A stretch of 24,798 nt of DNA, taken from the IMG/VR virus record IMGVR_UViG_3300044580_000147, positions 1 through 24,798 of that record; one strand, written 5' to 3'. The notes beneath the pieces are model-generated. The model worked only from the letters and a program-made list of their open reading frames with translations. It was not told the DNA's origin and searched no databases. Below are positions 54 through 24,798 of the stretch, piece after piece. The first letter of the stretch is position 1; the number at the start of each line of letters is the position of its first letter. Source of the stretch: a virus. The position numbers were made by a program, and so were the translations under genes.

Positions 54-187
54 AATAAAGAGTTTTTCACCATGAAACCCCCTGGCTACACGGTAGGATA
101 CCACGACACACCACCAACACACCCCACAGACTACGAGGTAATGAGTGACTACCAATTATGGAAAAAACACAACCGGAGACGAAGACA

Positions 188-1432
188 ATGGCAGGCGGAA
201 GACCCAGCAAACCTGATGAAACGGGATGGATAGCAACCAAAGACCTAAAACCACACCCACAAAATCCAAGGACACATGATGAGGATCAGATAAAAAAGAT
301 AGCCCGGTCTATTGAAGAATTAGGATGGGGAAGACCGATCATTATCAGTCAAGATAATTATATTCTCGCAGGACATGGAGCATACCTAGCAGCCACCACC
401 CATTTAAATTTGATGAGTGTTCCGTTTAAACGAATGACCCACAAACATGACAGTCCAGAAGCCCTTGCGTATATGGTAGCAGATAATAAATTAACAGATA
501 GTAGTGATTGGAATTATGCTGATTTGGAATTAGTGTTTGATGATTTAAAACTTGAAGGGTTTGAAGTAGAATTGACAGGGTTTAATGTTAATGAACAGTT
601 AGAAGTCGAATCTAAAGTAGAAGGTAAAAAAGAAGTTGTTGAGGACGACTTCGATCCGGATGATGTTACAGAAAGCATCGTACAATTAGGACAAATATGG
701 CAATTGGGGAATCATAGGTTAATGTGTGGAGATTCAACTAAAAAAGAAGATGTTGAATTATTAATGGATGGCAACAAAGCAGATATGGTATTCACAGACC
801 CCCCATATTCTGTTAATTATGAAAAGAAAGTAAAAGAAATATTTGGAAATAACGATTACAACAAAATATCCAATGATGAATTATCCGTTGATGAAATATC
901 AGAATCTGTTTGGAAACCATCATTCAGAAACATGCACCAAGCCGCCAGCGATCACTGCTCATTCTACATGACCGCCCCCCAAGGGGGAGATCAGATGATG
1001 ATGATGATGATGATGAAAGAAAACTGGCAAATGAAACACGAACTCATCTGGATAAAAAACAATCCAGTTTTCTCAATGGGAAGACTCGATTATGACTATC
1101 AACACGAACCCATACTTTACGGTTGGAACAAAACCCATAAATTTTATGGAAATGGAGAATTTACAAAATCAATATGGCATATTGATAGAACTAAAAAGAA
1201 TAAGTTACATCCAACCATGAAACCAATCGAATTGATTTCCAATGCTATTCTTAACTCTTCTTTAAATAATGATGTTGTTTTGGATTTGTTTGGGGGTAGT
1301 GGTAGTACATTAATTGCTTGTGAACAATTACAACGCCAATGCTACATGATGGAATTAGACCCCCACTACTGCGATGTTATAATACAAAGATGGGAAACAT
1401 TCACAGACCAAAAAGCCCGACTGATAACATGA
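188..1432 (+). CDS. ParB/Srx-like N-terminal domain fused to a beta-class amino (N6-A/N4-C) DNA methyltransferase
   Basis: N-term LKPHPQNPRTH..QIKKIARSIEELGWGRPIII....ILAGHG..A (ParB-like); catalytic DPPY precedes the SAM-binding DLFGGSGST (beta order); HPTMKPIELI. ATG 188 preferred over 158 because GGAGA lies at 175-179. Confidence 0.9.
   Translation: MAGGRPSKPDETGWIATKDLKPHPQNPRTHDEDQIKKIARSIEELGWGRPIIISQDNYILAGHGAYLAATTHLNLMSVPFKRMTHKHDSPEALAYMVADNKLTDSSDWNYADLELVFDDLKLEGFEVELTGFNVNEQLEVESKVEGKKEVVEDDFDPDDVTESIVQLGQIWQLGNHRLMCGDSTKKEDVELLMDGNKADMVFTDPPYSVNYEKKVKEIFGNNDYNKISNDELSVDEISESVWKPSFRNMHQAASDHCSFYMTAPQGGDQMMMMMMMKENWQMKHELIWIKNNPVFSMGRLDYDYQHEPILYGWNKTHKFYGNGEFTKSIWHIDRTKKNKLHPTMKPIELISNAILNSSLNNDVVLDLFGGSGSTLIACEQLQRQCYMMELDPHYCDVIIQRWETFTDQKARLIT
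995..1015 (+). repeat. (ATG)7 trinucleotide repeat encoding Met7 within the methyltransferase
   Basis: ATG at 995, 998, 1001, 1004, 1007, 1010 and 1013, in frame (QMMMMMMMKE). Confidence 0.95.
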
Positions 1433-20356: not shown

Positions 20357-21551
20357 CATCTACCGTGCACTGGCAAAGATAACAATACAACACCGCATCA
20401 ACGAAGCCTCAACCAGCTTTAACACACAATTCAACAACCCCCTAGACCCGGACGAATATGACACGGGAGAGTCATTCGAGTACACTATTATAGACAACAC
20501 ATTACCTGAGGGGCATTTAGTCATAGAAGGATTAATAGAAACCGTGGATGTGGATTTGAATGATAATAACAAGATATGGGGACTGAGTGGCCGGGATAAA
20601 GGCTTAGAACTCACCACAACCAAATATAAAGTTGATTCTACCGAAGAAGACCACACCGAACACACCGTCCGGGAATGGCTGGAACTAATCCTCACCGACA
20701 CCACTATCACAATAGGGAGGGGTCAAGCCGCCCTAAGTCAAGTAGTGAAGCTCACCACCGACGGACAAGCAACCAACAAGTTTGTGGGGAATTGGACAAC
20801 CAAAGAAGCCGCAATCAACCAACTATTCTCTCAATACATCCGATTCAGCGGAGCACAACAATTCAAATGGTACGTGGACTTTGCCGGCATGTTCCGATGG
20901 TTTGAAGTGAACAAACGCCTAGCAACACCCCTTCAATTCTTTAACAATGATGATCGGGTCCTGGGTTTCAAGGCAACCAAAAACGCCACCGGAGTATTAA
21001 ACGATTTCACCGGTTACTATGGGGCCGAAGAAGACCAAACATCCGTGCACCTGCAAAACACTGCTAGTATTGCTAAGTATGGTTTAAGGCCCGCCGATCC
21101 AATCACCAAAACCGATTACACCGTGGAAGAGATGACTAACTACTTACAACAACAACTCGACCAAAAATCGGAGGAAATCTACACCGGAACCCTCACCCTC
21201 ACTGGTATGCAAATGATCGAAACCGGAACACAACTACAATTCCCTGACAACCAGAAATATTCTGGTGTGGAATGGACAGTAGTAGACCAAACCTATAACA
21301 TCGAACCGGGCAAAATAACCACCACACTAGGGGTCTCCACCGACAACAGTGTCATAAGCTTACCTAATGATTATGATACCGTCTACGCCATAGCAAAAAA
21401 AGAGGTCGACGATAACAAGGCCGTGACCGCAATAGTCACTAACATCCCCACAGAAGGGGACAGGTGTGATGTGTGGATGGCCGGCCCAGAAGGCAGCGGT
21501 GTAGTGGTGAACATCCGCAACCCTGGCGGCAACTGGAGACACGAAGCATGA
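20349..21551 (+). CDS. Tail-tip hub protein (T4 gp27 / Mu gp44 / Tal-like)
   Basis: 400 aa; VIEGLIETV....WGLSGRDKG.EL, TVREWLELIL, EAAINQL, WYVDFAGMFRWF pattern; position after the Dit-like and fibre genes. Confidence 0.65.
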   Translation: MNDIYRALAKITIQHRINEASTSFNTQFNNPLDPDEYDTGESFEYTIIDNTLPEGHLVIEGLIETVDVDLNDNNKIWGLSGRDKGLELTTTKYKVDSTEEDHTEHTVREWLELILTDTTITIGRGQAALSQVVKLTTDGQATNKFVGNWTTKEAAINQLFSQYIRFSGAQQFKWYVDFAGMFRWFEVNKRLATPLQFFNNDDRVLGFKATKNATGVLNDFTGYYGAEEDQTSVHLQNTASIAKYGLRPADPITKTDYTVEEMTNYLQQQLDQKSEEIYTGTLTLTGMQMIETGTQLQFPDNQKYSGVEWTVVDQTYNIEPGKITTTLGVSTDNSVISLPNDYDTVYAIAKKEVDDNKAVTAIVTNIPTEGDRCDVWMAGPEGSGVVVNIRNPGGNWRHEA

Positions 21552-22384
21552 CTGAGTACGATGAAAGCCTATTCACCAACAACCCTGACGTGGTGGCGGG
21601 TGATCAGTGTATAATCTTCAATTCCCGTGATGGTGAAAAAATCGCCTTGCATAAAGGCTTTAATCTGGGTGTGGGTGACACGATTGTAGTTCACCATACT
21701 AGTGATGGGGATCTCGTGACGCATGGTAATAGCCGTATAGGTCTAGGGGATACTGTGGTGGTGGTTGCTTTGAAGGATGGTGACCTTGCAGCCCTTAATC
21801 CTGGGCTGAATCCTTACCGGGATTGTCCATTGATTGATAAGAGTACTCATGATTACAGTCAACAACACGACCCCGCAGATAACACATACCAATACCACGC
21901 TTACAGCATCCATCTCTCAGACCCTATCGGGTGGGGGGATTATGTTAATGCCCGCTTCGACTTTGAAATCGGATCAGAACAATTATTGGGGTTTCAACCT
22001 TGGTATCCTTATGGTGGTGTTTGGATTGGTCTTGGAGCAAGTAATACTGGGGGGGTAGTTGGCAAGGGGGATTGGTGGTGGCCCCAGGGGAACCCTTACA
22101 TGATTATCCGTGGCCAGCCTGCTGTGATATTAGGTCCACATGGAAACGCAACATTGGTTGGTGAATTGAAAAATGGTGGTAGCACTTGGGTTATTGAAGA
22201 TTTTGTAGGTCACATCTATCCCTATGGCAAGATACCATGGGATATTGAGTATATACATGTCCACATCAGTCAACAGTCGACTCTGTTCTGGTATAACTAT
22301 ACAGATACAAGGATGCCATATAGTCATTTCTGCAAAGGAACAGTACGGTATGGATGGGATGCTCAAATTAATAACTTTGAATAG
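21548..22384 (+). CDS. Tail spike/receptor-binding candidate with three N-terminal ~24-aa repeats (278 aa)
   Basis: ATG 21548 overlaps the hub TGA (ATGA); repeats x(A/V/L)GDxxxV/I....DG(E/D); Trp/Tyr/Gly-rich C-terminal domain. Confidence 0.6.
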   Translation: MTEYDESLFTNNPDVVAGDQCIIFNSRDGEKIALHKGFNLGVGDTIVVHHTSDGDLVTHGNSRIGLGDTVVVVALKDGDLAALNPGLNPYRDCPLIDKSTHDYSQQHDPADNTYQYHAYSIHLSDPIGWGDYVNARFDFEIGSEQLLGFQPWYPYGGVWIGLGASNTGGVVGKGDWWWPQGNPYMIIRGQPAVILGPHGNATLVGELKNGGSTWVIEDFVGHIYPYGKIPWDIEYIHVHISQQSTLFWYNYTDTRMPYSHFCKGTVRYGWDAQINNFE

Positions 22385-22390
22385 AATTTT

Positions 22391-22417
22391 TATCTTTTTT
22401 TGAAATATTTTTTTTTT
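22391..22417 (+). terminator. Oligo-T terminator candidate
   Basis: T7 at 22395-22401 and T10 at 22408-22417 right after the stop. Confidence 0.5.
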
Positions 22418-22449
22418 GATCAAACAAATGTAGTTGGAGGAGACATATA

Positions 22450-22869
22450 ATGGTAAGAACAATACAATACGAAGACCCGAACAAGAATGGAATAGGAAAA
22501 AAAGGTTTAAGAGAATTAAAAGGAGACGAAAACGGCCCCACAGTAGTACCCAGGAATGAGTCTGGTGTGGTACAGTCGGCGGGGACGGCGACAGACCCCA
22601 TGCACACTTTACAGATTGGTAAGGTGTGTATAGCTAGTATAACTGAAACAGACCTCACTGACAACGTTTACACAGTCACAGGAGACCCCGCAACACGGAT
22701 AGAATTAATCAATGATGGAGCAGGGGAATTAACTATAACCGTTTCTGATGGAGCTAACACTAGTTCTAAGGTTCTTAAACCTGACGATGTGTATGATCAG
22801 GACTTCACAGCAATAACCACCATAACCTTCAGTGCAGGTGCTGTTTTCAGAGCGGATATTTTGAGGTGA
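22450..22869 (+). CDS. Hypothetical virion-associated protein (139 aa)
   Basis: GGAGG RBS; Thr/Gly-rich beta-strand C-terminus. Confidence 0.7.
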   Translation: MVRTIQYEDPNKNGIGKKGLRELKGDENGPTVVPRNESGVVQSAGTATDPMHTLQIGKVCIASITETDLTDNVYTVTGDPATRIELINDGAGELTITVSDGANTSSKVLKPDDVYDQDFTAITTITFSAGAVFRADILR

Positions 22870-22875
22870 AAAACA

Positions 22876-23202
22876 ATGATTCCAACCATCAAACAGGATT
22901 TTGAAAACCTTTTAGCCGATAAAATATTCAAAGAAGCAGCCCTAGAACAGTTACAAAACCTTCAGGATTTTGATGACCGAACAGCTACCAGGGCCACTAA
23001 ACCACTAAATCCTGACGATCCTAATTCAGATTTTGAAACTGAGGAAATAGAAAACCCCCTACCTCTCCATAAACAGAAAGGATTTGAGGAATGGATGGAC
23101 GTAGTAAGACTCAATGCGCAGGCCAGGGAAGTAAAGGTCTCTGAACTCACAGAACAATATCCTCCTGAAGAAATAGAAGCCGCAGTGGTAGTGTTAACAT
23201 GA
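22876..23202 (+). CDS. Acidic hypothetical protein, possibly a fibre chaperone or adaptor (108 aa)
   Basis: GAGGTGA RBS; stop overlaps the ATG of the Mtd-like gene. Function inferred from position only. Confidence 0.65.
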   Translation: MIPTIKQDFENLLADKIFKEAALEQLQNLQDFDDRTATRATKPLNPDDPNSDFETEEIENPLPLHKQKGFEEWMDVVRLNAQAREVKVSELTEQYPPEEIEAAVVVLT

Positions 23203-24662
23203 TAGGTAAAGCTCCCCGAACTGATTATATAGAACTCGTTCCAGAAAGAGACAGGCGTTTAATCTACCCTCACGCCACAGATAAGGATAAATTAATCCTA
23301 AAAGGGGCCACCAACGGTCCATTCAAAATAAGAACCAATGAGGGTGTGGTTTGGCTTGATGAAGACATAACTGTGACCAGTGCCGACCTGGACACCGGGG
23401 CCATGGAAGCCGGGAAGGATTACAACCTGTACGCCTGTTATGATGATGGATTCCTGGACATAGCTTACAGCCTAGCATCCACATATCCGGCAGGTTACAC
23501 GGCTGATAACAGTGTCCGGGCTGGTGGATTCCATACTTTATGTGCTAATGTGGGAACAATCTCAGGACATCCCTTATCCGGATACCTGGCAGGGGAAATA
23601 TTACCGGCCAGTGTTTGGGACCTAAGACACCGGGCCCGGAACCTGGACAACAGGGGGATGGTCTATGATGACCTCCTACAACTTTGGATCCAAATATACC
23701 TTGCATCAGATGACGGCAATAACGGAGTACAATCAGTAAATGGTGCCACTATCCTGGACACTGTCGACTGGAACGCTTTTGTTGAAAGGGCCGGTAAAGT
23801 AGGACTGAGAATGCTCACAGATTGGGAATTCCAGATAGCAGCCCGGGGCACCAATGAGGAAACCAACATCGCCGGGTCTGCTGATCCTGTCACCACAGGG
23901 GGCCACATAGACACGGCCAGCCGACGGATGATCAGCAGCATTGGATTAGAAGACGCAACTGGAGTGATGCACCAGTGGCTCAGTGACCAGTCCTACCGGT
24001 TCGATATGGCCGCTGCAAACATTGGATTAACCGCTGCGGGGGCAACTGCGACAGTTTACCATGCCGCCAGTCCTGGGGGGAATCAAGTCTACCTTAAATT
24101 CAGTACAAGTGGAATCCCATACCTATGCAGCAATATGGCGACCGGTTCGGTGGATGTGTGGATCACCCTTGGAAGCAATCAAAAATTCATCATCAAACAC
24201 GATGCCACCGCAAACACTGGAATCCCTGTCTACATGAACAGGGCCGCAACAGAACCAAACAAATTATTAATAAACAACACAGTACACGGTAAAAACGTTT
24301 ACGTGGCAACCAATTACGATGGTGCGGTAGTTGTCCAACTAGTCCATGATGCCAGTGCAGCCACCAACGGTGTTGCTTTGTACTATGATGATGGAACAGA
24401 CAGCCGCTTGGAGGCCACGTTCAGTAACAGTGCAAATAACACATTTGACGGCGCTTATTTCAGTCCTTTATTCAATTATTACAACTTACCGGGGGCAGTT
24501 GGAAGCTTGTACAAACAAGGAGATTATGGGGATGTTAAGCTCCTTGCGGGCGGTCCTTGGCTTTTTGGCTCGCTTGCCGGGTCTCGCTGTCGGTATGCGT
24601 TTTATCTCCGGTCGATTACGAGTTCGTCTATCTCGGCGCGCTTCGCTTGTGAATCCCTATGA
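23199..24662 (+). CDS. Major-tropism-determinant (Mtd)-like receptor-binding protein with an FGE-type C-type lectin domain; putative DGR target
   Basis: AGKDYNLYAC, GGFHTLC, ILPASVWDLRHR, RGMVY, WIQIYLAS; CLec/FGE core LTDWEFQIAARG...G.EDATGVMHQW; C-terminal LLAGGPW....AGSRCR.........ISARFACE parallels the Bordetella BPP-1 Mtd terminus. Confidence 0.85.
   Translation: MIGKAPRTDYIELVPERDRRLIYPHATDKDKLILKGATNGPFKIRTNEGVVWLDEDITVTSADLDTGAMEAGKDYNLYACYDDGFLDIAYSLASTYPAGYTADNSVRAGGFHTLCANVGTISGHPLSGYLAGEILPASVWDLRHRARNLDNRGMVYDDLLQLWIQIYLASDDGNNGVQSVNGATILDTVDWNAFVERAGKVGLRMLTDWEFQIAARGTNEETNIAGSADPVTTGGHIDTASRRMISSIGLEDATGVMHQWLSDQSYRFDMAAANIGLTAAGATATVYHAASPGGNQVYLKFSTSGIPYLCSNMATGSVDVWITLGSNQKFIIKHDATANTGIPVYMNRAATEPNKLLINNTVHGKNVYVATNYDGAVVVQLVHDASAATNGVALYYDDGTDSRLEATFSNSANNTFDGAYFSPLFNYYNLPGAVGSLYKQGDYGDVKLLAGGPWLFGSLAGSRCRYAFYLRSITSSSISARFACESL
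24540..24662 (+). repeat. Putative DGR variable region (VR) with G/C element and IMH-like end; cognate template repeat not in the window
   Basis: No A in 24540-24594 and only 6 A in 24540-24650; ten NNT codons alternate with fixed GC-rich codons; TCGGCGCGCTTCGC followed by TTGTGAATCCCTATGA at the 3' end. Confidence 0.75.
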
Positions 24663-24708
24663 TCTCTTTAAAATAAGAATGAGGGAACAGGTTTTTGTTA
24701 AATTTTAA

Positions 24709-24764
24709 GTTGCAGAGTCGGAAAGTATTGCCTAATTATGTAGTACTCGAAAACCGATTCCAAC
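24709..24764 (+). ncRNA. Candidate structured RNA element downstream of the VR
   Basis: GTTG(24709-12)/CAAC(24761-64), GAGTCGG(24715-21)/CCGATTC(24754-60), AGTATTGC(24724-31)/GTAGTACT(24740-47), 8-nt loop; the three non-Watson-Crick pairs are all G-U on the + strand. Confidence 0.5.
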
Positions 24765-24798
24765 ACGGACAATAGAAAATTCTCTTTTTAAACTTTTT

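Follow-up and report, generated by a model that had tools for sequence, protein, structure and literature searches.

The virus record IMGVR_UViG_3300044580_000147 of IMG/VR is a linear sequence of 24,798 nt, analysed here in its entirety (hereafter the window) and estimated by CheckV to be 59% complete. Close to its end lies a gene for a tail protein of the Mtd family, P0001, whose last codons, judging from their composition and from comparison with relatives, were almost certainly written by a diversity-generating retroelement (DGR). In such a system a template repeat (TR) would be transcribed and copied by a DGR-class reverse transcriptase (RT) that misincorporates bases at random opposite adenines; the resulting cDNA would then replace the variable region (VR) of the target gene, a process called mutagenic retrohoming. 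The region is considered a DGR-written VR in a virus of Methanobacterium because all mismatches between it and the TR of the relative closest in this region (locus L010) fall at adenines, because the DGR cassettes of other relatives show the same adenine-only relation, and because several lines of evidence point to this host. Since the site that the cassette occupies in relatives holds unrelated sequence ending like a late operon, the most likely reading, held with moderate confidence, is that the VR has been orphaned and is probably a frozen record of past diversification, not a tip under rewriting.

Adenine makes up 32.8% of the whole window and 29.2% of the remainder of the target gene, and at the 3' end of the gene it almost disappears. 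A direct count found no adenine in 24540-24594; the adenine-free run (24539-24594) measures 56 nt as compared to 26 nt for the runner-up in the window, and positions 24540-24650 contain six adenines in 111 nt, as compared to a mean of 36.4 (standard deviation 7.1) for all 111-nt windows and 17 for the runner-up among non-overlapping windows. This depletion is far beyond chance. Ten codons among the last 40 end in T (CCT, CTT, TTT, CTT, TAT, TTT, TAT, ATT, AGT and TCT), and in an alignment-free comparison of 97 homologues sharing the register these ten are the ten columns of highest entropy (3.0-3.5 bits, 12-16 residues each), with the scaffold codons between them (G, W, GSR, R, A, R, R) invariant or nearly so. 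The first-pass annotation of this DNA was thus reproduced in its adenine counts, in its reading frame and in both sets of codons, the ten that end in T and the fixed GC-rich ones between them. At its end the VR resembles an initiation of mutagenic homing (IMH) element, with a run of G and C only followed by a hairpin with arms at 24640-24645 and 24650-24655 and the loop CTTG. When paired by hand, this hairpin has only four Watson-Crick pairs and a wobble in the window and in L010, as opposed to a stem of 6-7 bp with a CTTG loop at the same site in the relatives L002 and L004, where the TR copy is unable to form the stem.

What kind of protein carries this region? Residues 50-141 of P0001 match the Pfam family mtd_2nd (PF21916) with an E-value of 5e-20 (72.3 bits, cut-off 24.6), and the protein matches PHROG 11262, annotated as 'tail protein', at 1e-59. 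As a single sequence P0001 retrieved only noise from the PDB and a profile was needed for the match to Mtd; with a profile of 30 sequences the six crystal forms of Mtd from the Bordetella phage were all matched, the best being 1yu4 (1.8e-24). The alignment proceeds in two collinear stretches, profile positions 34-266 on Mtd 61-310 (1e-20) and positions 430-490 on Mtd 321-377, the latter a weak match (12.8 bits) to the part of Mtd in which its own VR lies. In the profile alignment the ARF.C motif of the window is placed on IGARGVCDH of Mtd, in agreement with the earlier suggestion that the VR is the equivalent of the C-terminal end of Mtd. The AlphaFold model of P0001 has a mean pLDDT (predicted local distance difference test score) of 72, and five Mtd entries are its sole significant Foldseek matches (4e-11 to 2e-10). 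Residues 425-479 have a pLDDT below 50 in this model, and by analogy with Mtd the VR segment would adopt the fold of a C-type-lectin tip. Altogether, the sequence places P0001 in the Mtd family, here a family of more than 1,200 members. This assignment, together with the adenine-only relation to the TR of L010, bears out the claim of the first-pass annotation that the C-terminus of a tail receptor-binding protein carries a DGR variable region. Between the two halves aligned to the lectin domain of Mtd lies an insertion of about 160 residues (Table 1), of which residues 275-425 are modelled as a confident β-rich domain with a pLDDT of about 90. The insertion is kept in the closest homologues of P0001.

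The most direct evidence for the origin of the VR comes from L010, a mosaic locus that is 73% identical overall and the only other carrier of the window's VR subtype. Window positions 24092-24724 differ from L010 at 43 of 633 nt, and 17 of these differences lie within the 116-nt VR. All 17 affect the first or second position of template codons inferred to contain adenine, the scaffold bases being identical. L010 also contains a partial TR of 63 nt, to which window positions 24543-24605 show 18 mismatches, every one at a TR adenine. This partial TR belongs to a TR/VR hybrid (L010:2178-2296): the first 63 nt are an A-rich template matching L010's own VR as well as that of the window, and the remainder is an in-frame, A-poor 3' end of VR type with a stop codon, similar to the C-terminus of alleles of the L093 type. 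No RT follows the hybrid in L010, which looks like a TR that recombined with the VR of a cassette-less virus with deletion of the RT. A TR matching the 3' half of the window's VR subtype was not found anywhere searched.

Other relatives carry whole cassettes in the order target, TR, RT and a small open reading frame (ORF). In L002, 86% identical to P0001, the TR starts 98 nt past the stop codon and 22 of 22 VR/TR mismatches (24 of 24 over 113 nt) are located at TR adenines, the longest identical run between the two repeats being about 14 nt. The corresponding values are 97 nt and 20 of 20 for L004, L005, L006 and L009 (84% identity), and 61 nt and 27 of 27 for L007 (55% identity). In L094, in Caudoviricetes sp. 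vir525 (L092) and in several bacterial members the mismatches likewise fall at template adenines. An RT is present in L002, where it comprises 352 residues and follows the TR, and in L004, L007, L094 and L092. The RTs of the relatives match the 328-residue reverse transcriptase of PDB entry 8ub7, which we take to be the BPP-1 enzyme, at 3e-57 versus 5e-14 for RTs of group II introns, contain a motif of the IGxxxSQ type (IGNYTSQ) and match PHROG 1423 at 7e-124, features by which they classify as DGR-class RTs.

In no relative is there an avd gene between target and TR, where the spacers of 61-98 nt leave no room, and the cassettes contain none of the accessory types avd, HRDC, MSL and CH1. Avd is not universal among DGRs (PMC5758913). 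In these cassettes a small ORF of 97-98 codons overlaps the stop codon of the RT (L002:3535-3831; L004:12826-13122; L007:12793-13086) and is conserved across archaeal and bacterial members. Its product of 11 kDa, with a pI of 6.9-9.1, has no match in Pfam or PHROG. AlphaFold models it as a small barrel rather than a helical bundle (pLDDT 88), with oligonucleotide/oligosaccharide-binding (OB) folds of the single-stranded DNA-binding protein (SSB) type as best structural matches (Z 5-7), and a Foldseek search of the model against the PDB gave nothing below an E-value of 0.04. The model suggests that the small protein may serve as a nucleic-acid-binding accessory factor in Avd's stead. One of the cassettes, that of L007, lies in a provirus of Methanobacterium spitsbergense (GCA_019931065.1, JAIOUQ010000009.1, positions 305204-326682) and appears intact, with target, TR, RT and 97-residue ORF. 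M. spitsbergense is presumably a cultured methanogen species, and its cassette could offer an archaeal DGR amenable to experiment.

Ten VR/TR pairs (L002, L004, L007, L094, L014, L092, L011, L023, L010 and window positions 24543-24605) were used to follow the fate of the template adenines. The 160 adenines inside AAY codons (Y, pyrimidine) appear in the VR as T in 61 cases, A in 62, C in 21 and G in 16, and the 105 adenines outside such codons as T in 9, A in 22, C in 5 and G in 69. G is therefore found at 69 of 105 template adenines outside AAY codons versus 16 of 160 inside. The templates encode S, R, Q, H and T at scaffold sites where all VRs show G and R, and each observed VR holds 5-8 obligatory A-to-G changes, caused either by selection or by a context bias of the RT. 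The first-pass annotation had predicted a template in which asparagine codons occupy the variable positions and the G and R scaffold codons are fixed. The asparagines were correctly foreseen, the first seven being found in the TR of L010 and the last three in the TRs of L002, L004, L007 and L094. The fixed scaffold was not: at several of these codons the clade's real templates have S, T, R, H and Q, with G substitutions there in every VR.

What, then, follows the VR in the window? The spacer after the stop codon is shared with L010, and the homology breaks exactly at the first base of the L010 TR (24725/24726). A total of 136 nt follow the stop codon, none of which are TR-like, in a region where the TR of relatives starts at 61-98 nt. 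Elsewhere in the 24,798 nt no site comes within eight non-A mismatches of the VR, and BLAST returned only the self-match. By tblastn, the L002 RT found nothing below an E-value of 4 in the window, and the small ORF nothing at all. A TR-like copy and an RT, the search for which the first-pass annotation had named beforehand, are thus missing from the sequence at hand, that is from 59% of the genome. The last 73 nt of the window could not be explained as a decayed TR, as local alignments to four TRs scored like shuffled sequences, nor as a remnant of the small ORF, the conserved C-terminus of which is unlike their last codons and for which tblastn was negative. They contain one exact match of 14 nt to the sequence just past the small-ORF stop codon of L004 (E 0.028). 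Across the junction a hairpin can be folded (Table 1) whose 5' arm is made up of the shared spacer and whose 3' arm is made up of the window-specific tail; on the minus strand the same positions reach only -10 kcal/mol (z-score +0.3). The hairpin is followed by a TAG triplet and by two T5 tracts, at 24785-24789 and, at the very end of the contig, 24794-24798. Hairpin, TAG and T tracts may together constitute the terminator of the late operon. A stop codon and oligo-T close the operon in a similar way past the small ORF in L004, L094 and L007 and past the target in L093.

Table 1. Positions of the features discussed, in window coordinates
Feature	Position	Strand	Basis or remarks
Distal-tail module, mosaic, common to DGR-bearing Methanobacterium proviruses and absent from backbone relatives	22627-24725	+	blastn
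Target gene P0001, 487-residue Mtd-family tail (receptor-binding) protein	23199-24662	+	ORF, translation, homology
Insertion of about 160 residues (267-430) between the two halves aligned to the Mtd C-type-lectin domain	23997-24488	+	Profile alignment
Variable region	24539-24652	+	Register with VR/TR repeats of relatives; matches L002 VR 2052-2165
GC-only run (24634-24641) and weakened VR-end hairpin, IMH-like VR end	24634-24655	+	Sequence
Spacer after the stop codon	24663-24725	+	Same as L010 save a 7-nt indel near the 3' end, absent from the window, within 24720-24725
Hairpin spanning the junction	24709-24764	+	RNA fold -17.4 kcal/mol, z-score -3.1, reached by 2 of 200 shuffles
Window-specific sequence in place of the TR: 3' hairpin arm, TAG (24773-24775), two T5 tracts	24726-24798	+	Alignment

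The target gene belongs to a distal-tail module of three genes with a history of its own. Matches of 76-77% by blastn to L002, L004, L005 and L006 are confined to 22627/22663-24653. In the backbone relatives G001 and G002 (L106 and L107), which are 98-99% complete, both Mtd and RT are missing; their gene order agrees with that of the window as far as the ORF at 21473-22384 and diverges thereafter, the last common DNA being an exact match of 31 nt at window positions 22000-22030. This distribution suggests that the module reached the virus by recombination with another Methanobacterium provirus lineage. The host cannot be read from the Mtd family alone, as at about 50% identity its members are mostly found in bacterial genomes (Bacteroides, Geobacter, Desulfovibrionaceae and Bartonella); the assignment is based on backbone genes and closest relatives. 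The large terminase subunit TerL of the window shares 76% identity with a protein encoded on a 1.85-Mb contig of Methanobacterium paludis and 54% with that of Methanobacteriales virus vir080, with the next phage at 30%, and the major capsid protein matches vir080 only. The L004 provirus is adjoined by genes for HisF, ThrE and UbiB, which match Methanobacterium proteins either exactly or with at least 90% identity, and L007, on a 340-kb contig of M. spitsbergense, has the tape-measure protein and two further tail proteins in common with the window. In addition, the lysins of relatives carry the pseudomurein-binding repeat. These similarities support a tailed virus of Methanobacteriales with Methanobacterium as host; the earlier proposal of a probably archaeal virus is thereby sharpened by TerL, the major capsid protein and the integrated relatives. 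Two further observations concern the virus group. The first gene of the window (158-1432) encodes a ParB-like N-terminal domain fused to an N6/N4 DNA methyltransferase (PF01555, 7e-29). Some relatives of TerL (homologues P0231 and P0253) comprise 600-800 residues with domains of the homing-endonuclease/intein type (PF05204, PF14528), which suggests intein-bearing terminases in this group.

The following course of events appears most likely. Mutagenic retrohoming turned ten AAY (asparagine) codons into the present T-ending ones. In the other Methanobacterium provirus lineage the module continues with TR, RT and the OB-fold-like ORF of 97-98 codons but no avd. The VR would encode the ligand-contacting tip of the receptor-binding protein, and this tip may bind a component of the Methanobacterium surface. 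The cassette would have been lost from this genome or never have been co-transferred with the module; the end of homology at base one of the TR, followed by hairpin, stop and oligo-T, has the look of a late-operon end. Orphaning is also consistent with the state of the relatives: the cassette of L010 is broken, L093 and the contig of P0008 have lysis genes directly after the target and no cassette, the backbone relatives lack both RT and Mtd, and the VR-end hairpin is weakened. About one third of the family loci with 6-kb flanks contain neither TR nor RT. The claim of the first-pass annotation that the virus hypermutates its host-recognition tip is accordingly not sustained by the 24.8-kb record, which holds no TR or RT and has unrelated sequence at the canonical TR site.

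Several points weigh against a frozen VR. The record is a linear and incomplete fragment, and a TR-RT cassette elsewhere in the genome is possible. Only 73 nt lie beyond the junction, and the contig end may be chimeric; the likeness of this tail to the sequence past the L004 cassette consists of only 14 AT-rich bases. Furthermore, the VR is as A-poor as the VRs of active relatives, and the fact that it differs from the L010 VR only at template-adenine sites implies that retrohoming took place after the two alleles separated, which fits a system that is still active. Finally, the contig L003 (JGI 3300044606), a second assembly of the same virus that is 99.96% identical to window positions 21717-24496, ends 44 nt before the VR, which could reflect heterogeneity of the VR in the sample or chance.

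The strongest competitor, though an unlikely one, is a DGR that is intact and active, with TR and RT as a remote cassette in the unsequenced 41% of the genome and the tip still being rewritten. The incompleteness of the record, the A-poor VR that departs from its L010 counterpart at adenine-derived sites only and the position at which L003 ends would all agree with it, and DGRs with remote targets are known and are missed by cassette-based surveys (PMC8144416). Yet every cassette found in the family adjoins its target immediately downstream, the family loci without an adjacent TR have no RT within 6 kb on either side, the nearly complete backbone relatives have no RT, and the hairpin at the VR end is weakened.

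A misassembled contig end would also account for the missing cassette: if the last 73 nt were wrongly joined, the true genome would run into a canonical TR and RT as in L002 and L004. The break does coincide with a repeat boundary, it is only 73 nt away from the contig end, and the junction occurs in no other assembly. An exact look-up of P0001 found no longer assembly, exact patterns from the spacer and junction and from the tail were absent from the viral contigs and metagenome contigs searched, the neighbouring protein of 303 residues was found in no other assembly, that of 108 residues matched only L003, and a protein scan of metagenome contigs yielded only an L004-like relative. We nevertheless hold this explanation to be improbable, since identical runs between VR and TR (about 14 nt at most in L002) are too short to mislead a k-mer assembler, the tail pairs with the genuine spacer in a strand-specific hairpin and ends with stop and oligo-T like real operon ends of relatives, and L010 and L093 independently show cassette-less arrangements.

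Could the VR be diversified in trans, by the matching TR and RT of a related provirus residing in the same Methanobacterium host? Cassette-bearing and cassette-less relatives both occur in Methanobacterium, and the VR of the cassette-less L093 shows no non-A mismatches to the TR of L094 over its first 66 nt. Guo et al. are said to have demonstrated in 2008 and 2011 that the Bordetella phage DGR acts in trans on a matching target in the laboratory. As there is no TR for the 3' half of this VR subtype among the sequences searched, the partial match in L010 is a broken hybrid, and the window has only a weakened target hairpin, such rewriting of this VR appears very improbable. Ordinary sequence of odd composition due to chance or codon bias, for which nothing speaks beyond its general possibility, deserves practically no credence and is refuted by an adenine depletion that no other part of the window approaches and that coincides with the VR segment of Mtd in the profile alignment, with the entropy peaks of the family and with an adenine-only relation to a real TR in L010.

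How does the orphaned VR compare to known systems? With the BPP-1 DGR (mtd-VR, avd, TR, brt) it shares a target that is a true Mtd homologue, aligned in the mtd_2nd domain and, weakly in the second half, in both halves of the lectin fold, a VR at the extreme 3' end with AAY-derived codons among fixed G, W, GSR and R and a GC-rich end, and, in its relatives, an RT closest to the 328-residue chain of 8ub7. Unlike BPP-1, the record has no TR or RT, the relatives are arranged as target, TR, RT and small ORF without avd, the target contains the lectin-domain insertion, the host is archaeal and has a wall of pseudomurein, and the templates of the clade have extra adenines at scaffold codons.

Diversification of a Mtd-like tail protein is the founding example of DGRs. 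A case from an archaeal virus was published in 2015 with ANMV-1, a putative archaeal virus whose DGR targets AdtA, a protein resembling tail fibres (Paul et al. 2015, PMC4372165). Common to both are a DGR acting on a Mtd-like lectin-fold tail protein in a virus of methane-cycling archaea, a VR/TR pair about 114 bp long and a hairpin that follows the VR. In contrast to the window, ANMV-1 has an intact cassette, with an Avd ORF in the figure legend, and its host among the anaerobic methanotrophic archaea (ANME) was inferred indirectly (PMC4372165), whereas here the relatives are integrated in Methanobacterium genomes, a direct link. The same module occurs in vir525 (BK063673.1, Methanosarcinales) and the M. 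spitsbergense provirus (GCA_019931065.1), which have Mtd-like tail proteins of 56% and 55% identity, respectively, a TR directly downstream, an RT and an ORF of 95-97 residues and, unlike the window, keep the whole cassette. In their records the annotation goes no further than 'tail protein', 'reverse transcriptase' or hypothetical, and in the literature searched we found neither a paper naming these modules as DGRs nor a description of DGRs in Methanobacterium viruses. The relatives also resemble the avd-less architecture A1 (Wu et al. 2018, PMC5758913) in having TR and RT by the target without an accessory gene of a known class. They differ from it in the conserved ORF of 97-98 codons over the RT stop, the size and pI of which fit none of the four accessory classes described.

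A broader view, which we put forward as speculative and distinctly unlikely in its entirety, would regard Methanobacterium viruses as a pool of circulating Mtd-type receptor modules with or without the retroelement, in which cassette-less genomes may be rewritten in trans and in which the DGR of the clade stands apart as a variant that does without avd, employs a small OB-fold protein and copies templates in which the scaffold adenines have to become G for any product to be viable.

Returning to the orphaned VR, a perfect VR signature does not equal present-day hypermutation, as the engine is missing here at its usual place. Large surveys take the RT as their starting point and, by their own account, miss targets that are not adjacent to it; orphaned targets of this kind would not be listed by them (PMC8144416). 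DGRs of archaeal viruses are represented in the literature searched by essentially one uncultured case, ANMV-1. The finding reported here leads to a clade of Mtd-type DGR modules in Methanobacterium proviruses, and M. spitsbergense, presumably a cultured species, would open an archaeal DGR, and with it receptor recognition on a pseudomurein wall, to bench experiments.

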